Below, piece by piece: positions 5,225-14,395 of a stretch of DNA of 64,000 nucleotides. Source of the DNA: an uncultured Methanolobus sp. Lineage in GTDB: Archaea > Halobacteriota > Methanosarcinia > Methanosarcinales > Methanosarcinaceae. Each line of letters opens with the position of its first letter. Position 1 is the stretch's first letter. Where the stretch lies: positions 2,496,001-2,560,000 of the forward strand of contig OY776215.1 of the NCBI GenBank assembly GCA_963675495.1, given 5' to 3'. The translations under genes were made by a program, and so were the position numbers. A model generated the notes under the pieces. The model was not told the DNA's origin. It saw only the letters and a program-made list of their open reading frames with translations, and searched no databases.

Positions 5225-6439
5225 TCACCAGATAATGAGTACAATGTCTGCACCTGCTGGATTAGCTGTTCTGTATATTGCATCGAGCTGGGTGTTGGCA
5301 AGCTCATATCTTGTGCTGTTATCCGTGGCATTACATATGAGTGCGATCGTCTGGTTTATGTCATCACTCTGGTAATCAATGATGTGATCTGAAATGAGAT
5401 CAGTGTTCACATCCATGATTACAGTATTGACAGTGTCTACAATATCCAGACTGACGCTTTGTTCTTCCGGGTTTATTGCTATGTTCAGTCCATAAAGATC
5501 ATTTATTGTGTAGTTCATGCATCCAAGGGCACTCTGTATCACAGGGCTGCTATAATTTGCATCATCCGGACCTGCAAGACATGCTAATTGTTCACTGTTT
5601 ACCGATATCTCAGTAGCATTTAGCGATGAAAGGTAATCATACGGAAAAACAATATCTGTGATTGTTTCTGCACATCCACCTGCTGCAATTCCAATGCTGT
5701 TGTTGAACATATCACGTAGCTCTTTATCCGGCTCAGGAGAATTAATAGCATTGTATATTTTTGTTTCATTGAAAGGATTGTATATCTCTTCTTTTGTGAC
5801 CAAATATGTTACAGGTAGAGATATTCTGGCCTGTTGTCTGATTGCAGTTTCAGGTGCTTTTTCTCCTACTATTATGTCACTTTGTACTTTATACCCGATA
5901 ACAGGCTGCCAGTGGGCTTCAAATCTGTAATTATATCTCTGCCCTATGGTCCTTTCAAGGTGAGCTTCTATCTGTCTTTCAGTTTCGAAGCTTTGCATTT
6001 TTGTCATGGGGTTAAGAGATTTCCGAGTACCGTTCTCTGTCTGGTAAAGGCTCAGTACCAGACCCTCGGCTACAAGGTCCGAAAAGGTGCGATGACGTTG
6101 TTCCTTTGTAAATATTGTCTCCTCTGCATCTTCAAGAATTGAATTTTCCGAGAGGTTGACATCGATACCTGCCAGGTCAGTTGGTTTTAAAGTATATTCG
6201 AATTCATCGACCGTGCTACTCATGATGGTATTCATCAGGCACATGTCCATATCCTGTGCTGAAGTATAAGATGCTGAGCGATACTGCTCATCTGCTGCAA
6301 TGGAAGGCAAAAGAATTACTGCAGAGATTGAAACCAGGATTAGGAACATAATAGCATCGATGCTTGATGAGAATGCGTTCTCATCCCTGAACATTTCAGA
6401 GAGATAACTTTTTTTCCCAGTGGGTTTGGATCGTACCAT
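5225..6439 (-). CDS. Hypothetical membrane-anchored protein with class III (pilin-like) signal peptide
   Basis: FRDENA|FSSSIDAIMFLILVSISAVILL; many N-x-S/T sequons; ends in a hydrophobic beta strand (DIVLIIW). Confidence 0.7.
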   Translation of the reverse strand: MVRSKPTGKKSYLSEMFRDENAFSSSIDAIMFLILVSISAVILLPSIAADEQYRSASYTSAQDMDMCLMNTIMSSTVDEFEYTLKPTDLAGIDVNLSENSILEDAEETIFTKEQRHRTFSDLVAEGLVLSLYQTENGTRKSLNPMTKMQSFETERQIEAHLERTIGQRYNYRFEAHWQPVIGYKVQSDIIVGEKAPETAIRQQARISLPVTYLVTKEEIYNPFNETKIYNAINSPEPDKELRDMFNNSIGIAAGGCAETITDIVFPYDYLSSLNATEISVNSEQLACLAGPDDANYSSPVIQSALGCMNYTINDLYGLNIAINPEEQSVSLDIVDTVNTVIMDVNTDLISDHIIDYQSDDINQTIALICNATDNSTRYELANTQLDAIYRTANPAGADIVLIIW

Positions 6440-6469
6440 GTCGGTCTCCGTTTTTTTATTTCCACTTTT

Positions 6470-6979
6470 TTATTTCCATCTGTTCTGCATGATCTTCACA
6501 GTAATGGTTCCGGGAACGCAGCGTGCACTGCTTCCGAGTTCAATGACGACTGGCACTGATGATGCAATAATATCCCTGCCATTGAGCGAAATAGCTCCGT
6601 CTATAATTGTCCATCTATAATTTCCATCATCTGTTGCTGCTTCAACATAAAAGTCCAGATTTGGGGAAAAACGCTGGAAGAACATATAGCGTTCCTCATT
6701 TACAGAGGGAGTGGAAATCCTGTCAAGTGATTTTGCAGAAATGAGTTCAGGTCTGCTTCCCTGAAGGGGTGGATAGGATGCAATGTCCTGTGCTATCAGG
6801 GCAGCCTGTTCATAGTTTTCAAGTGCCTGCGAATTGTCATTGAATGCAATGAAGGTCTTTGAGAGGATTGCTGCGAATACCACAAATCCAATAACCACCA
6901 TTGCAGTGGCTATTATATCATTGTTAGGCTCAAGAAAAGCTCTTTCATCACTGGTAAACGAGGACATATTCAAGTTCAT
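6470..6979 (-). CDS. Putative minor pilin-like protein
   Basis: FTSDERA|FLEP followed by the hydrophobic helix IIATAMVVIGFVVFAAIL; in an operon with similar genes. Confidence 0.7.
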   Translation of the reverse strand: MNLNMSSFTSDERAFLEPNNDIIATAMVVIGFVVFAAILSKTFIAFNDNSQALENYEQAALIAQDIASYPPLQGSRPELISAKSLDRISTPSVNEERYMFFQRFSPNLDFYVEAATDDGNYRWTIIDGAISLNGRDIIASSVPVVIELGSSARCVPGTITVKIMQNRWK

Positions 6980-7604
6980 TCACCTCGTTTCCGTCTGTTA
7001 CAAATACTTGTGTTTTTTCTATGTTAACTTCTTTACTTATGTTCAAATCAAGTTCTTCTGCTGCGACAATGGACAAAAACTCCGTCAGATCAGTGTGTGG
7101 GAATATTGAATTGACAGGTTGGCTGGCATTTCCATCTGCTGAAAATTCTCCAGTGAGGAGATTCCTGAGGTTTTCGGGACTAAAGGGTATTGTCCTGTAA
7201 TTTAGAGGTCTGACAACAGATAGGTTATTTCCTTCATCTAAAAAAGTGCAGCTTACATATTCTCCGGTGACTGAGATGTTCAATCTGCCACTGTCAATTT
7301 GTTGTCTTGCAGAACTGTCAAAACGGTATATTTTCACTGTATTGTCTGTACCGGAATGAATACTTCCCACCGAATCAATGTTTGATGCCAGGTCAATTGC
7401 GAGTACTTCCAGCTCATTCTTTTTGACCATATCTGCTGAAATGGAAGTCAGGTTATATACTGCGGCAAGGATGACCGCAGTTACGATAATGAGTGCTGTC
7501 TTTGAAAGTATCAGGTCTACCCATGCATTGTTATCATCAGTAAAACTTTTTGTACTAACTAATGATGAAGGATCTGTGGTATTAACTTCTGTCCGTTTTT
7601 TCAT
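6948..7604 (-). CDS. Putative pilin-like protein
   Basis: FTDDNNA|WVDLILSKTALIIVTAVILAAVY; its start overlaps the upstream stop (TAATG). Confidence 0.7.
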   Translation of the reverse strand: MKKRTEVNTTDPSSLVSTKSFTDDNNAWVDLILSKTALIIVTAVILAAVYNLTSISADMVKKNELEVLAIDLASNIDSVGSIHSGTDNTVKIYRFDSSARQQIDSGRLNISVTGEYVSCTFLDEGNNLSVVRPLNYRTIPFSPENLRNLLTGEFSADGNASQPVNSIFPHTDLTEFLSIVAAEELDLNISKEVNIEKTQVFVTDGNEVNELEYVLVYQ

Positions 7605-8098
7605 TACAACTGGGACTTATCACTAAGTGTGATAAAAATTTTTCTATTTTGGTCGCGAACACTTTCTATATTAATTATGTGTGGTCCGGGGCTAAGGACT
7701 ACACAGCCACTAAGAGTGGAATTAGAATAAGATGCAGCAGACTCTCCAATGACCTGCTTCCCGTTGACCTCTATGTAATAGTTCCGGGAATCGGAAGGCC
7801 AATAATCCTCTTTTCCAGGGACAGCTCCCATTACAAGTTTTGCATTTGAAGGAACATTAATGTCAAGAGTTATATTGCTGCCAATTCCTCTGAATGACAT
7901 CTGGTCAGCATGACCTTCTATTTCCGATATCACAGCTTCAGCAGCATGCATTTCTTCTTTTTCAAGCATAGAGGATAATGCTGTTGAAAGCAGAAGCAAC
8001 AATGCTCCTATGGCGATGACTGCAACTATCATTTTCATAGGGAGAGCATCTGCTGCCCTTTCATTTCTTATGATGCTTGTCGGGGATTTTTCCATCAT
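7604..8098 (-). CDS. Putative pilin-like protein
   Basis: IRNERA|[22 protein letters not shown]; ATGA overlap with the hisS stop. Confidence 0.72.
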
Positions 8099-9330
8099 TT
8101 GTTTGTAAGTTTTTGAATGACATCTTCAAGAGTCAGAAGTTCCTGCTCACCGCTTTTCATGTCCTTCAAGGTAACTTTTCCGGCTTCAACTTCCTGTTCA
8201 CCGATTATTACCACATAATTGGCACCGATGTTATTTGCATAGGATAACTGAGCTTTGAAATTCCTCTTCATCAGGTCATTGTAGACTGGCATGTGTAACC
8301 TGAGTTTAGTAGCAGCTTTCACAGCATCCAGACGTGTACTGTCCTTTGCAATTATAACGACAGGTTTGTCATCAGGTGCTTCCAGCTCACAGACCTCCAT
8401 TATCCTGTCAAATCCAAGGCCGAATCCTGTGGATGACACATCTCCGCCGCCAAATATTTTGATAAGATTGTATGAACCGCCTCCACATACCTGGTTCTGG
8501 GCGCCAAGTCCCTCGGCATATATCTCAAAGACCGTGCCTGTGTAGTAGTCAAGTCCCCTGGCGATTCCAAAATCAATGGTATATTCCACTCCGTAGGTAT
8601 CCAGAAGGGTCAAAAGTTCCTGGAATGTCTCTATTTCAGGAATGTCGCCCACAAGTTCGCGTGCTTTTGTAACTGCTCCTTCTCCGGTAAGACATATCAG
8701 TTCAAGGAGCTTCATGCACAGGTCCGCAGGTGCATTAATTTCTTCAAGGAAATCATTGAGTCCTGTATCATCTTTCTTATCAACAAGTCTCATTATTTTG
8801 CTCTGGTGCTCGGTTTCCAGAACGCTTAGAAGGTTTCTGATTACACCAAGATTGTTAACGTGAAGGTCACCTTTGACACCCACAGATTTGAGCATCTCAG
8901 TTGCAAGTGCAATGACTTCAGCATCAGCATCTGCTCTCTTGCTGCCAATGAGCTCCACACCGAACTGCCAGAATTCTCTAAAACGTCCTTTCTGGGGTCT
9001 CTCATACCTGAAACAATTCTCAAAATAGAATAACTTCAATGGCTGCTGGAATGATTGCATCTCATTGACGTACATCCTCATGACAGGAGCGGTCAGTTCC
9101 GGACGCAGTGTCATTTCCCTGTCTCCCTTGTCTTTGAAGTTGTAGAGTTCCCCTACTATTCCTTCGCCGGATTTGAGCGTGAAAAGTTCCAGATTCTCAA
9201 ACGTGGGGGTGATTATCTCGTTGAATCCCCAATTCTTAACGACCTGGCGTAGTATGTTCTCCACGTATCTTCTTTTCTTTGTGTCTTCCGGGAGGAAATC
9301 ACGTGTGCCTCGTGGTTTGCTTATCTTCAT
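8095..9330 (-). CDS. hisS: Histidine--tRNA ligase
   Basis: [39 protein letters not shown] and GGGSY motifs. Confidence 0.98.
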
Positions 9331-9727: not shown

Positions 9728-12700
9728 ATGAATTCAGATATCGCGAACAAAAAACGTTGCTTTAGTCAGGATACCCGGGCTTACATTCCTTTTGCGGTGA
9801 TTGGTATGTTCATTCTTCTCTTCGCTGTAATAGCATCCGTATACATAGCGAAAACAGATTATGATCTGGCAGAGGTAATCTACACTACTAACACTGCTGA
9901 TATGGAGGAAAAAGCTGTTGAATTTGCATCTGCCGACCTTGCACGCTGTCTTAATTATGCGGGAATGGAAGCTCTTGTATGGCAGGGTGAACATCCGGTA
10001 ATAAAACCTGAAACCATTACAAATGAAATTATGGAATCTGATGATTTCTCCGTATCATCCGATAGTCGTGACGTAGAACCCGGTGATACTGTCAAGGTGT
10101 CCGTATCTCTTCCATCTGATGCATTCAAATTCATTTCATGCCTTTTTTCAGATAAACCAAGGACACTTGTCGTAAAAAGCGATTCGAGGACGGTATACAA
10201 GACGATAGACTACAATGAATCCCATTCATTCTGGAGCAGCTCCAGTTTCGAGGAGGAGATCATTATTCCTGAAAATGCTGAATATGGCTATACTTACCTC
10301 ATTCTGGAATATGACGGCGAGACAAAGGCAGTGAACTGGTTCCATGTAGGCAGCAGTCCCCTGAAGGATATCACTGCGGAGTATTTCAATGAATATCTGC
10401 AGACATCCTATCAGGAGAACCAGCATACTTTCAACAATTATGCAATTAACATAGAACCGAATATTGATCCTTCGCAAATAAGAATAGATAAGATCAACGG
10501 AACCCTGAAAAGAGAGATTAGCAGGTCAGCTTCAGATGATCCAGATTATCCTATATATTACACTATGACCGTCCATGATCTGGATTATACTCTGGTGGAC
10601 CTTGCAACGAATACATCAAGAAATGATTGCATGGATGTGACAGCTATCATCACCTCCAGAGAACCTTTGCTAGAGCAACTGGTCAACGAATACGAAACCG
10701 AGTTAAGCGGTGGAGTTACCTCTGATATTGTACTGGGTGCTACCAATATCCGAACTTTCACCTATGGTCCTTGGCAACATTACCTGAACGGTCCCTTGAA
10801 CATCGTGACAGGCCCATCGTTAACGGCTTCTGTAAATGCTGGTACTCTCTATGCCCAGAAACGTATCTTTGATTCTGTGGACCCATGGGCTCTCACATAC
10901 ACTACTTATTACAACGGAAAAGTGCTCTACGATGATGTCAAGCATGATACAACTACTTATGACGAGGACAAAGGAAGTAACCTGAGCACTACATATGATA
11001 GTCTTTCAGATGAAGGCACTTTCAATATCAGTGTCTCAAAGGGGATAAACGAGTCCATGAAAGATGCCAATACCACTCTGGAAGAAGTCGCCAATAATTC
11101 AAGGATAGTGGTTTCTGTTTCCAATTTCACAAATGAGGTGTATAGTAACTGGGTATACAATGACGATGATGTGTGGAAAAGCACAGAATATCCAGACCTG
11201 CTGCATGATGTTACACACGAAGTGTATAGTGGTACGATACAGGGACAGGTCTTCAGGGATGGATTCAATACTTCTACTCCTTATGATTTGCAGGTCGGAC
11301 CTACAAGTTACGGATCTGTTACATGGCAGGGTGGGAACTCAAAAACTGGTAAGGACATTAGGTGGACAGCCCATTATCCTGTCAACATTTCCCATACCTG
11401 TGCTCTGACACCTGATTACAATTTTAGTGGCATATTAGATGTAAACCACAAGGTGAATATCGATGCTTCGTCCCACAAATGGTATTATAAATCTGCCAAA
11501 GTGGACCATGTATCCACAGACATAGTCTGTGAAGGAGTGGATGTTAGCTATGAATACCTCGGAAATGACACTGTAACGAATCTTGAACGAACGGACGGAT
11601 ACCTGTCCGGCGAAAACCATAGTTTTGACTGGAAGGTAACGAACAACATCAAATTCAGGATCAAAACACGCTGGGACATCGATTATACATATCACTGGTC
11701 GTACATGACCTATAATTCATATACAGGCAATCGTAAATATTTCAATGGCGACTCTTCCGGATCATTGGAAAATTACCCCCTTACAGACTATGAAAAAGCA
11801 TCCCATACACAGACAGAAACTGAGAATTTCAGCGTTGTCTATCATCAGTTTTTGCCCTCCGGCGGCTACAGTGGCCTGAGTTCCTACAATTCTGGAAGTG
11901 CCAATGATTACAAAACAAGCACTGTAATTGTCGACGGAGTTCCAATTAACGATAAAGGCTGCAGTGATGCAGCAGACAAGTATCGCGAACAGGAAATCGC
12001 ATCCAAACTACCACTTATACAGGGTAACTACCTTGCTTACGCCAGCGGAACACTGCTCCCTGTGGAAAAGGTTTATTGCGATGTTCCTGACTGGCTCCAT
12101 TATAAAATGGCAACCGAAATGGAGGAGATGTTCAGTGCTATTAACACAGATGATCCTACCAGGGAGGTATCCTTACTTGGCGAAAATCTTGGCAAAAATC
12201 CTACAACGCTGATACAAATCGCATCTCTGGACCTTGCCGCAGAGATGGGGGGAACGTCAAAACGAGAATCCTTCATCCAGCAGGCTCAATATATTGACAC
12301 AAGCCAGTTCACTACAAGTAGTGATGCATGTCGCGCCATTGCAAAGAACGAAGCCTACGAACGCCTGCTCATAGAGCTCAAGGAGAGAAACAAAAAAGCA
12401 GAAGGCTCATTTGATCAATACGTTGACAAATCTTTTGAAGAGGAACAGGGTCATTCCCTTCTAAGTCTTTTGAAGAACAAAGTCTCTACTGATGTACTCT
12501 TCAATAACCCTGCCATGGACAAAGCTTCTATAGCCCTTGGCGCAGAAATGGGCATTATAGAAACTATGGAAGTTGTAGGAATGCCAGACAGTAAATACAA
12601 CTGGAGCGAAAACCTCACTCTTGTGGTGGACCAGTACCCTGACTACCTCTACCATGATCCATATTTCGATTTGCAAAGCCAGTATAAATGGACTGATATA

Positions 12701-13786
12701 TCCGGAAAGGAAGTTTATCCGCTGGCTGTACGCAATGTCTGTGTATTCTCCACAGGAATAGGTGATGATATTGCGGGAATGCTTGCTGATGCTTCTGCAC
12801 CCCTGAAAGATGTAGTTTCCCAGTCCATGAGCCAGAGTCTTGCCGATGCAAATGCTGAAATTGATTCCCTGCTTGAAGATATCGGGAGCAACAGCGCAGA
12901 ACTAATCGTGAAAGGTGTATCAACAGATACAGCTCTCATCGAAGAGAACCGCACTAAAATGATGGATGCATACAGCGATGCCATCAGACAGCAGGTGCCT
13001 CTGGTAATTGTCAGCGAGGTTGCAAAAGACCCGGTTCTAAGCACATGGGTCAGCAGTGCAGATGTGAACCAGATTACAAAAGATTACCTTGCAACTCTAT
13101 CAGATGCTGAACTTGTAAACATGAGCGCAAACAACAATCTTCAGGATGAGATTTTTGCTCAGGTCAGCCAAAAGATCATAAATGACAACCCTGCAATAAC
13201 CTCCAATGAAATTGATGTGGCACTATACCGCCTTGAAGCAGACATGCAGATCGGCGTGACAGAAGGGGTATGCGTAGCCATACAAAGTTGTCAGGCAGTC
13301 ATCGACCAGTGTTTTGCAAACATTAATAATGAGTTACAAAATAAACTGGATGAATCAACCGATAAACTGACAGGACAGTTTGCCGAAAAAATGGAAAAGA
13401 GGTTGCAGAAGTCGATGAAAATGGTTCCATGTGGACTGCCTGTGCTGCCACCTAATTGGGTGTGTACGGTGAATGTGTGGGAGTATGAAGTGAAGGGTGC
13501 TTATAAGGAATTTGAAGTTATTGATAACGATAATGAATGCATGTTCAATCCTTATTTTGGACATGATGCACAATCTTATATTCGTAAAAATGAGAGGATT
13601 GTTCATCTTACGAAAAGAGGAAACGATGGGGGCTTGATTGTTATTGGAAGTAATCAGCGAATTGTATTTGGTTTTTCAGGTTATGCAGCAACTATTGTAG
13701 GCCCCGGTCCAAAAGGTGTCGGCGATAAAGTAGGAGAGAGGGATGAAAAGTCTATTGCTTATGATTATTTTGAATCACAATTTTGA
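9728..13786 (+). CDS. Large (1352 aa) surface protein with class III signal peptide; function unknown
   Basis: FSQDTRA|YIPFAVIGMFILLFAVIASVYI; beta-rich Tyr/Ser/Thr middle; helical acidic region; C-terminal PCGLPVLPPNWVCTVNVW motif. By recall it resembles the euryarchaeal DUF7286-type family (unverified). Confidence 0.8.
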   Translation: MNSDIANKKRCFSQDTRAYIPFAVIGMFILLFAVIASVYIAKTDYDLAEVIYTTNTADMEEKAVEFASADLARCLNYAGMEALVWQGEHPVIKPETITNEIMESDDFSVSSDSRDVEPGDTVKVSVSLPSDAFKFISCLFSDKPRTLVVKSDSRTVYKTIDYNESHSFWSSSSFEEEIIIPENAEYGYTYLILEYDGETKAVNWFHVGSSPLKDITAEYFNEYLQTSYQENQHTFNNYAINIEPNIDPSQIRIDKINGTLKREISRSASDDPDYPIYYTMTVHDLDYTLVDLATNTSRNDCMDVTAIITSREPLLEQLVNEYETELSGGVTSDIVLGATNIRTFTYGPWQHYLNGPLNIVTGPSLTASVNAGTLYAQKRIFDSVDPWALTYTTYYNGKVLYDDVKHDTTTYDEDKGSNLSTTYDSLSDEGTFNISVSKGINESMKDANTTLEEVANNSRIVVSVSNFTNEVYSNWVYNDDDVWKSTEYPDLLHDVTHEVYSGTIQGQVFRDGFNTSTPYDLQVGPTSYGSVTWQGGNSKTGKDIRWTAHYPVNISHTCALTPDYNFSGILDVNHKVNIDASSHKWYYKSAKVDHVSTDIVCEGVDVSYEYLGNDTVTNLERTDGYLSGENHSFDWKVTNNIKFRIKTRWDIDYTYHWSYMTYNSYTGNRKYFNGDSSGSLENYPLTDYEKASHTQTETENFSVVYHQFLPSGGYSGLSSYNSGSANDYKTSTVIVDGVPINDKGCSDAADKYREQEIASKLPLIQGNYLAYASGTLLPVEKVYCDVPDWLHYKMATEMEEMFSAINTDDPTREVSLLGENLGKNPTTLIQIASLDLAAEMGGTSKRESFIQQAQYIDTSQFTTSSDACRAIAKNEAYERLLIELKERNKKAEGSFDQYVDKSFEEEQGHSLLSLLKNKVSTDVLFNNPAMDKASIALGAEMGIIETMEVVGMPDSKYNWSENLTLVVDQYPDYLYHDPYFDLQSQYKWTDISGKEVYPLAVRNVCVFSTGIGDDIAGMLADASAPLKDVVSQSMSQSLADANAEIDSLLEDIGSNSAELIVKGVSTDTALIEENRTKMMDAYSDAIRQQVPLVIVSEVAKDPVLSTWVSSADVNQITKDYLATLSDAELVNMSANNNLQDEIFAQVSQKIINDNPAITSNEIDVALYRLEADMQIGVTEGVCVAIQSCQAVIDQCFANINNELQNKLDESTDKLTGQFAEKMEKRLQKSMKMVPCGLPVLPPNWVCTVNVWEYEVKGAYKEFEVIDNDNECMFNPYFGHDAQSYIRKNERIVHLTKRGNDGGLIVIGSNQRIVFGFSGYAATIVGPGPKGVGDKVGERDEKSIAYDYFESQF

Positions 13787-13795
13787 GGAAAGAGT

Positions 13796-14395
13796 ATGAA
13801 TTGTAAATTAGGTATTGTATGTATTGTATGTCTTTTAGTACTGTTTTCGACGCCATCATCATCAGAAAGTTCCAACCTTAAGATTGATGTTTTTTATAAT
13901 GACCAATTGTATCCTGGAGCATCAACCCCAAAACCGCTTTTGAAAATTGGCGAACCATTTAAACTGAGATTTGAAGTAACTTGTTACAAAAGGAACTTTC
14001 TGTCGGCAATGTTAACTTCTATTGGTGAAAATGATTTTGACATAATTGAAGGACCAACATCATATTTAGGAGACTTTATAGATGAAACAATAGAAGCAAA
14101 TGAGACAAGGGTTTTTGAATGGACAGTTGCTCCAAATGAAGAGTGGGCTGGAGGCAGTGCACCAATTGACTTTTACTACCAAATGACTGATTTGGAAACT
14201 GCAAAAACGATTACAAGTGGTGAATTCACCGCCGCCTACGTCACAATCTCTGAAGAGTACTACGATGGTCCAGAAACTGCGACAGTGCCCACAGGTGACT
14301 CAGAAAGCCAAAACGATACACCCACAACTCCGGCATTCACAGCTTTGTTTGCGGTGTTTGCCTTGGCAGCAGCAGTCATCCTAAGAAAAGAGTAG
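13796..14395 (+). CDS. Sarcinarray-type (MAST domain) surface protein with PGF/PEF-CTERM-like sorting signal
   Basis: Signal peptide, DVFYNDQLYPG..PKPLLKIGEPF motif, Thr/Pro-rich linker, then PAF + TM helix + RK. Confidence 0.75.
   Translation: MNCKLGIVCIVCLLVLFSTPSSSESSNLKIDVFYNDQLYPGASTPKPLLKIGEPFKLRFEVTCYKRNFLSAMLTSIGENDFDIIEGPTSYLGDFIDETIEANETRVFEWTVAPNEEWAGGSAPIDFYYQMTDLETAKTITSGEFTAAYVTISEEYYDGPETATVPTGDSESQNDTPTTPAFTALFAVFALAAAVILRKE

Follow-up and report, generated by a model that had tools for sequence, protein, structure and literature searches.

Comparative genomics of a DUF7286 giant gene and its sarcinarray neighbour suggests a polymorphic two-gene surface cassette exchanged among related methanogens

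Several described systems combine a constant protein body with an exchangeable end. In the bacterial Rhs and contact-dependent inhibition (CDI; CdiA-CT/CdiI) systems, the constant body is followed by a conserved motif and a variable C-terminus, the small downstream gene co-varies with it, tandem 5'-truncated orphan modules carry a homology arm, and the variable module is more AT-rich than the body. In the pilE/pilS system of Neisseria, one expressed gene is altered by non-reciprocal gene conversion from promoterless, 5'-truncated silent copies, and phage tail-fibre cassettes such as the G segment of Mu are switched by site-specific inversion with a dedicated invertase. According to Makarova et al. 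(2021), the VARTIG proteins of Thermococcales are large surface proteins with a C-terminal domain made hypervariable by inter-species recombination; smaller downstream genes align to the C-terminal part of these proteins in a polymorphic-toxin-like organization of unknown function, and these authors recognized no counterpart beyond the Thermococcales and were unable to delimit the recombination sites (PMC8416519). The same source cites the Ups pili of Sulfolobus, in which a variable pilin region sets species-specific aggregation and the ligand is reported to be a surface glycan (cited in PMC8416519). Here we analyzed a stretch of 64,000 nucleotides (nt) at positions 2,496,001-2,560,000 of the complete single-contig 2.87-Mb genome of an uncultured archaeon, Methanolobus sp., in which a giant gene of the DUF7286 family is followed by a gene of the sarcinarray family. 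This whole stretch is called the window, and coordinates below are window positions.

The end of the giant gene and the ectodomain part of the sarcinarray gene probably form a polymorphic cassette spanning two genes, present here as one resident copy, that is exchanged by recombination among related methanogens. The parts of the locus are listed below with the evidence used to delimit them, including the third-position content of C (C3) and of G plus C (GC3) in codons.

9728..13786, plus strand: giant open reading frame (ORF) of 1352 aa, family DUF7286 (ORF list, match to Pfam PF23957)
12778..13350, plus strand: constant region matching the 5' homology arm (identity within genome G024; C3 normal, 0.18-0.32)
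13313..13582, plus strand: transition zone, comprising the conserved stalk end and the conserved N-terminal half of the tip (C3 and GC3 profiles)
13403..13783, plus strand: C-terminal 'tip' domain of the giant, aa 1226-1352, 127 aa (homolog alignment, AlphaFold model)
13583..13672, plus strand: hypervariable part of the tip, aa 1286-1315 (column entropy; ratio of nonsynonymous to synonymous substitution rates, dN/dS)
13583..14200, plus strand: swappable cassette core with the hypervariable tip half, 9-nt spacer, signal peptide and MAST ectodomain (array identity, GC3, breakpoints)
13796..14395, plus strand: sarcinarray gene, 199 aa (TIGR04209 match, AlphaFold model)
14201..14392, plus strand: 3' constant region with the ectodomain end, linker and membrane anchor (C3 0.3-0.35; 3' arm of arrays)

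The arms and the variable core were recognized in genomes that carry more than one copy of the cassette. In G025, which represents another family of the same taxonomic order, three units alternate, each formed by an ORF for the DUF7286 C-terminal part (230-310 aa) and a sarcinarray gene, with membership in both families confirmed. Units 2 and 3 lack a proper start and begin inside a stretch near-identical to unit 1, and the homology between units runs on into the 'intergenic' DNA. Identity between the units at the DNA level is 85-100% in a 5' arm of ~330 nt, 35-70% over ~850 nt, and 93-100% in a 3' arm of ~150 nt. In G024, which belongs to the genus of the window, the expressed pair is followed by an orphan 337-aa 3' fragment of the giant and a second sarcinarray gene of another type. 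The orphan and the expressed unit agree at 100% over ~560 nt, at ~85% over the next ~200 nt, and then at 38-80%. When this arm (unit positions 146 to ~700-745 at 100%) is placed on the window via the correspondence of aa 970 to nt 12635, its fully identical part ends at ~13,330-13,380, which coincides with the drop in C3, and the variable part begins at ~13,558. The same pattern is observed in G096, G103 and G085, where the orphans start at giant aa 847-1111, the arms measure 0.45-1.1 kb, the transition zone is 73-100% identical between expressed and orphan copies, and identity in the 3' arm returns to 66-86%, mostly above 75%. In four other genomes with arrays, a sharp loss of DNA identity between units sets in 165-180 nt past the tip start (~13,570-13,585 in the window), and identity is regained ~830-890 nt past it (~14,235-14,290). 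The borders of the GC3-poor block (13,583 and ~14,200; GC3 about 0.2-0.3 in the cassette core) are thus the points where the array units stop and resume being alike.

The largest arrays (G233, G227 and G166) all lie directly behind a full-length giant gene on the same strand. In G233 nine same-strand sarcinarray genes are found there, and of the eight downstream ones, seven have a full, partial or ~27-aa remnant of the tip before them and one has none; in G227 and G166 orphan tips are mixed with tip-less sarcinarray genes. The 'sarcinarray' arrays can thus be described as cassettes, read here as displaced ones, stacked behind the giant's 3' end. We also considered that the arrays might be assembly artefacts and rejected this explanation, as they are present in the single-contig genomes G096, G166, G227 and G233.

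Replacement of the cassette via homologous recombination in its conserved arms, with the displaced copies kept downstream, is well supported. In the mechanism that we propose, the 5' arm would consist of the stalk end and the conserved tip half, and the 3' arm of the ectodomain end, the linker and the anchor, so that recombination between these conserved arms would swap the tip and its partner together. An incoming cassette would displace the older one, which would stay downstream as a 5'-truncated tip fragment with an intact sarcinarray gene, and repeated displacement would build the arrays seen in other genomes. The partner in this scheme would be a secreted sarcinarray/MAST protein with an immunoglobulin (Ig)-like ectodomain and a C-terminal sorting-type membrane anchor.

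Other arrangements of the same genes were noted in passing. The three-unit array of G025 is directly followed by a gene for a MntA-type nucleotidyltransferase antitoxin (locus L021, contig C8, 4939-5547, minus strand). G048 has two complete loci of a giant and a sarcinarray gene 19 kb apart (L066 and L067, contig C2, at ~351,600 and ~370,450). In G092 a single frame of 328 aa comprises a giant fragment (aa ~1142-1222) and, fused to it, a sarcinarray gene (L062, contig C1, 8704-9687).

Giant orthologs were identified in 20 of the 24 same-genus genomes searched, and in 18 of these 20 loci a sarcinarray gene lies downstream; one of the two remaining loci is at a contig end, and the other, on contig C17 of G002, has none within 1.5 kb. 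Another contig of G002 opens with a tip fragment and a sarcinarray gene (L026, C16:1-923). One ortholog contains a single in-frame TAG (L003, G016:C35:177141-181178), which could mark either a broken gene or a read-through codon; the lineage of this genome reads TAG in some genes. When loci were collected starting from sarcinarray genes, a tip was found directly upstream in 28 of 30 cases, one of the other two being cut by a contig end and one having no tip. Among 201 genomes of the class, 72 contain both families, six sarcinarray only, one the tip only, and 122 neither.

The tip and the ectodomain co-vary beyond phylogeny. Across 12 same-genus loci, the partial correlation between the tip (aa 1251-1352) and the ectodomain, given the gene body, is 0.81 (Mantel p = 1e-4). 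For 67 distinct pairs with both arms controlled, the partial Mantel r is 0.585, a value reached by none of 2000 permutations (0/2000). The nearest neighbours defined by the hypervariable region of the tip and by the ectodomain agree in 31 of 67 cases, and those defined by the conserved tip half in 12 of 67. The trees of the gene body and of the cassette conflict in three places. In approximately unbiased (AU) tests, the body clades are rejected on the cassette data with p from 4e-3 to 1e-79, and the cassette clades on the body data with p <= 8e-5. At locus L006, another relative becomes the nearest one from giant aa ~1250-1261 onward, and the original one is nearest again from sarcinarray aa ~125-136; these changes correspond to breakpoints at ~13,480-13,510 and ~14,170-14,200 in the window, within both genes. 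In comparison with the closest species, DNA identity is 77-86% between ~13,570 and ~14,050 and 77-81% at 14,244-14,319, whereas it is 94% at 14,094 and 85-95% in most segments elsewhere, with lows of 83-84. Finally, ectodomains within one array are 39-65% identical, and the expressed cassettes of G166 and G227 each match a different orphan of G085 at 89%.

These results bear on the initial annotation of the stretch, made from its letters alone, which had proposed that the tip and the partner ectodomain were exchanged together by homologous recombination. The arms, the orphans, the co-variation and the tree conflict support this proposal. The drop in identity and the tree incongruence that it led one to expect near 13,455-14,220 are seen in the dip against the closest species, the AU rejections and the breakpoints of L006; the linkage of the two families in other genomes is confirmed by the seeded loci and the class-wide counts given above; and the arrays elsewhere follow the giant gene, interleaved with orphan copies of its 3' end, in G025, G024, G096, G103, G085 and G233.

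Sequence variation is concentrated in one part of the tip. Column entropy reaches 1.7-2.4 bits in the hypervariable part, compared to 0.8-1.2 in the flanking blocks, and dN/dS is 0.11-0.12 for the gene body, 0.13-0.60 for the hypervariable region of the tip, and 0.07-0.17 for the ectodomain. Since dN/dS never exceeds 1, these allele classes seem to be conserved ones of long standing and not to diversify rapidly. Such variation might also be explained by evasion of viruses or other enemies that bind the cell surface; tip and partner would then form a single exposed structure serving as the receptor, cassette replacement would be an escape similar to antigenic variation, and the co-variation of the two proteins would result only from their joint swapping. 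Silent 5'-truncated copies behind one expressed pilin-like gene, as in pilE/pilS, allele classes common to several species and the restriction of variation to surface loops are in line with receptor variation of this kind. It is nevertheless rather unlikely, given the purifying selection on ectodomains within classes and the residual correlation of tip and ectodomain beyond what physical linkage alone would give, although co-transfer could contribute to the latter.

The codon composition of the cassette provides an additional line of evidence. The initial annotation had placed an abrupt switch of base and codon usage at 13455..14220 and illustrated it by four counts of C per 120 nt (26, 13, 16 and 39), which our recount reproduces exactly. 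Over codons 1-1200 of the giant, C3 amounts to 0.259. It is down to 0.072 in the final 152 codons of this gene (13328-13783), stays at 0.083 in sarcinarray codons 1-120 (13796-14155) and rises to 0.30-0.35 beyond them. A crude genome-wide set of 1986 ORFs, divided into 5272 non-overlapping windows of 120 codons, served as the reference; C3 <= 0.075 is found in 0.76% of these windows and GC3 <= 0.25 in 3.9%. At two-fold pyrimidine-ending codons, C/(C+T) equals 0.119 (10/84) in the segment, 0.403 in the genome and 0.443 in the rest of the giant; values <= 0.12 occur in just 0.05% of 1943 genes, and the intergenic expectation is ~0.32. Since such low C3 and C/(C+T) are rare in the genome, the shift is real and far beyond chance, and the question of its statistical significance is settled by the 120-codon windows and the pyrimidine-ending codons as highly significant. 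As originally noted, both reading frames are intact in the ORF list and both switch points fall within coding sequence. The shift is indeed abrupt, but the initially proposed start does not hold, as C3 falls already from ~13,313-13,330 and the full loss of GC3 sets in at ~13,583; both the C3 drop and the GC3 depletion end at ~14,155-14,200.

The same shift is present in relatives. The drop in C3 affects the same codons in 12 full-length same-genus orthologs, which are 50-90% identical at the protein level; where residues are conserved, codon identity falls to 40-60% in these orthologs, except in the closest species, and C3 remains low even though the synonymous substitution rate is saturated for several pairs. 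In loci of this family and of a second family taken together, C3 of the tip is below that of the preceding 150 codons in 35 of 39 cases, and C3 of the ectodomain is below that of the tail in 37 of 39. When 40 loci are pooled, C/(C+T) falls from 0.49 upstream to 0.23 within the cassette and is back at 0.51 in the tail; G/(G+A) is 0.51, 0.30 and 0.30 for these three parts. The average over 38 loci consists of two nested zones, C3 falling at 13,313-13,583 and GC3 falling to 0.19-0.30 at 13,583-~14,200; in the transition zone the mean C3 is 0.10-0.19 and the mean GC3 0.38-0.53. In this zone (13313-13583), both in the window and in the 38-locus average, third positions trade C for G, so that GC3 stays steady at ~0.4-0.5. 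Being common to most homologous loci, the shift is a family-wide property of the cassette and does not record something that happened recently in this genome.

Recent acquisition of foreign DNA by this genome through horizontal transfer would agree with the abrupt change of composition inside the gene. However, the 12 same-genus orthologs have the same block, of the same composition, at the same place, as do most loci from other genera and the second family, and relative to the nearest species the DNA identity of the cassette is just moderately below that of its flanks. We reject a recent foreign insertion, the shift being conserved in the same-genus orthologs and in the 35/39 and 37/39 loci above, and regard its probability as negligible. 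Another explanation is a feature at the level of translation, slowly decoded T- and A-ending codons pacing the folding or export of the tip and its partner. This would be consistent with a shift that is kept across genera despite saturated synonymous sites, with an avoidance of C-ending codons in the window below the neutral intergenic level, and with a start of the shift in conserved protein sequence, ~250 nt ahead of the hypervariable part. On the other hand, the full GC3 depletion is bounded by cassette borders that were set independently, from the DNA identity of array units, and the untranslatable orphan tips are equally depleted. A translational role is thus very unlikely. An internal promoter or transcription-linked mutation bias is disfavoured, since C3 recovers within the sarcinarray gene.

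Returning to the exchanged cassette, we infer that its low GC3 reflects a separate history of the cassettes as a long-lived, partly untranslated, exchanged allele pool. The time spent untranslated and the separation of the exchanged pool plausibly contribute to the low GC3, but the C-specific deficit in the window and the C-to-G shift in the conserved zone are not explained by either. The loss of C and of GC at silent sites, limited to the cassette and in the window exceeding what neutrality would predict, could mark a dedicated process acting on it, for instance a strand-biased mutational or recombinational one, and not mere relaxed selection.

Family assignments and predicted structures give some indication of the function. 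The giant protein matches Pfam DUF7286 (PF23957), its sole Pfam match, with 134.7 bits (threshold 27); aa 958-1345 strongly match profile positions 649-1000, whereas positions 1-75 are weakly matched. Its N-terminus contains one hydrophobic helix that resembles a pilin anchor, and there is no anchor at the C-terminus. The sarcinarray ORF starts 9 nt after the giant ORF, and its product matches the full NCBIfam model TIGR04209 (positions 1-144) with 158.9 bits (cut-off 45), whereas the match to MAST_ArtA_sort (TIGR04204, positions 2-181) scores 144.5 bits and stays below the cut-off of 150. A six-frame hidden Markov model (HMM) search detected one DUF7286 giant and one sarcinarray gene in this genome, and the same search combined with blastn of the region found no cassette remnants elsewhere in the genome. 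The AlphaFold model of the sarcinarray protein (predicted local distance difference test score, pLDDT, 83.7) consists of a signal-peptide helix (aa 3-16), an Ig-like beta-sandwich (aa 28-155, pLDDT >90), a disordered Thr/Pro linker (aa 162-179) and a hydrophobic helix (aa 180-198) with the end RKE. In Foldseek searches it retrieved generic Ig-like sandwiches alone (MG domains, a fimbrial subunit, cohesin), with E ~2e-5 and TM-scores of 0.3-0.47. The order of its tail (PAF, hydrophobic helix, RKE) resembles an archaeosortase signal, and archaeosortase A (TIGR04125, 265.9 bits) is encoded in this genome. For the last 50 aa, the matches listed at E <= 10 include no PGF-CTERM model but weak ones to other C-terminal sorting models. 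The AlphaFold model of the tip is all-beta and of moderate quality (pLDDT 77.9, predicted TM-score 0.53). Searches with this model returned no hit in the PDB by Foldseek at E <= 0.001 (best E ~1), a best Z of 2.2 in a wide VIA-align search, and a best score of 0.83, under the usable range, in a protein atlas.

The most likely function of the cassette is that of a matched surface specificity unit, involved in cell-cell or self recognition, in adhesion, or in docking of the tip on its partner; both products are probably exposed, and they co-vary, the tip is probably a structural part, conserved in a family of pilus-associated giants, and the partner has an Ig-like domain of a binding type. A toxin/immunity function is less likely than matched surface recognition. 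In a polymorphic toxin system the tip would be a contact-delivered toxin acting on the envelope, the sarcinarray protein its extracellular immunity factor, and the arrays stores of orphan immunity genes beside decayed toxin tips, as in Rhs and CDI loci. The locus shares the architecture of such systems, with a constant body, a variable C-terminus, a co-varying downstream gene, arms, orphan tips and an AT-rich cassette, and tips decaying beside intact sarcinarray genes are what selection for immunity would yield. However, the 53 tip homologs are all versions of a single homologous domain, in which 16 residues are invariant and the variation is restricted to one stretch, and not a set of unrelated folds. 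The tip is matched by positions 894-1000, at the C-terminal end of the DUF7286 profile of Pfam, and the control genome of Haloferax volcanii matches DUF7286 but not sarcinarray, suggesting a structural role. The moderate tip model matched no toxin or enzyme fold, although this does not exclude one, and a secreted, anchored Ig-like sandwich is unlike most immunity proteins. Overall, we consider toxin/immunity unlikely. A more specific version of surface recognition is archaeal allorecognition, in which the variable tip of the pilus-type giant must match an adjacent, variable, lipid-anchored Ig-like receptor, and ancient allele pairs crossing species boundaries are exchanged as one cassette. We propose this only tentatively; if it were true, the arrays would be a record of earlier alleles that keep cells compatible with older kin.

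The comparison with the systems outlined at the beginning shows both common and distinct features. Like Rhs and CDI, the locus has a constant body whose variable C-terminus co-varies with the gene next to it, and orphan modules carry homology arms, these modules being found in related genomes and not in this one. Unlike them, its variable tips form one homologous beta domain with a conserved core and no toxin fold found, its downstream protein is a secreted, membrane-anchored Ig-like sandwich, and the carrier is an archaeal pilin-like giant in place of a YD-repeat or two-partner-secretion protein. As in pilE/pilS, spare truncated copies share conserved flanks and variation lies in the exposed C-terminal part; the cassette differs in having two genes, the second of which is intact in the spares, and in being attached to a 1352-aa giant and not to a major pilin. 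As in the G segment of Mu, the variable C-terminal part of a long protein is exchanged with an adjacent small gene while the N-terminal part stays constant. Unlike in Mu, the repeats are direct, and the neighbourhood of the window locus showed no gene for a recombinase. The similarity to VARTIG is one of organization only, that of a large archaeal surface protein with a recombining hypervariable C-terminus. The proteins studied here belong to other families (VARTIG being arCOG07710 multi-Ig proteins) and another lineage, and do not qualify as VARTIG members; they are further distinguished by homology arms that are discrete at the DNA level, by a cassette with a fixed set of two genes and by the compositional signature. 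With Ups pili, the giant would share the character of an archaeal surface protein related to type IV pili and, by our reading, a role in distinguishing self from non-self, but Ups have neither a two-gene cassette nor orphan arrays, and their reported glycan ligand contrasts with the product of an adjacent gene proposed here. In a literature search we found no description of the module, which may sit under arCOG numbers in the supplementary tables of two Makarova papers; nothing was found on DUF7286 giants, and sarcinarray proteins turned up in one paper, as no more than a count in a table.

Several observations weigh against the proposed exchange of a matched cassette. This genome has one cassette and no remnants, so that no switching is possible within it, and the evidence for switching comes entirely from other genomes. 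With relatives sampled as one genome per species, no recombination event was caught in progress. Inspection of the trees preceded the choice of the clades compared in the AU tests. Positive selection was not demonstrated by the segment-wide dN/dS values, none of which is above 1. Direct contact between the variable surfaces of tip and ectodomain, or their action as one matched specificity unit, is a putative element of this reading. The linkage of the two families has exceptions, including the giant on G002:C17 (L013) without a sarcinarray gene nearby, sarcinarray genes without a tip in five genomes of genus g18 and in G042 (genus g13, where the match is cut by a contig end), and array members that lack a tip fragment. 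In the g18 genomes, a longer sarcinarray gene (222-235 aa) stands alone between unrelated genes, as in G047 (L053, 1348-2016, minus strand) and four others, and no giant or tip was found genome-wide. Finally, the low GC3 is not fully accounted for by a simple drift towards mutational equilibrium, as C at pyrimidine-ending codons of the window (0.12) is far below the intergenic level (0.32), whereas G/(G+A), 0.36, is not below it.

If the exchange of the cassette is accepted, two uncharacterized families, DUF7286 and sarcinarray, gain a concrete reading, and the formation of sarcinarray arrays is explained by displaced cassettes on the giant's 3' end. The archaea would have a second polymorphic surface module, with an anatomy much sharper than that of VARTIG, and the compositional signature could be used to find further cassettes. 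The control genome of Methanosarcina acetivorans matches both families, and some of the relatives that carry arrays belong to its group, for which genetic tools exist. The tractability of this group makes self/non-self recognition, aggregation and contact-dependent antagonism of methanogens testable by cassette swaps.

A further feature of the window lies upstream of the giant gene on the opposite strand:

5225..8098, minus strand: four pilin-like genes encoding 164, 218, 169 and 404 aa (ORFs, N-termini)

Each of the four products has a single N-terminal hydrophobic helix of the same kind as that of the giant, and the 404-aa protein, the last of the four, belongs to DUF7284 (PF23955, 48.6 bits). 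This set is divergent from the giant gene and has the same direction as hisS. Together with the giant, the four proteins probably make up a single surface apparatus. The first 90 aa of the giant gave no match to NCBIfam pilin models; a leader and a hydrophobic helix are visible in it and in the four neighbours. The genome encodes an A24 prepilin peptidase and has seven matches to T2SSE-type ATPases, none of them within the window. The hisS gene (8095-9330, minus strand) overlaps the first pilin-like gene by 4 nt, and thus this housekeeping gene for a tRNA synthetase appears to be co-transcribed with surface-protein genes (7604-9330).

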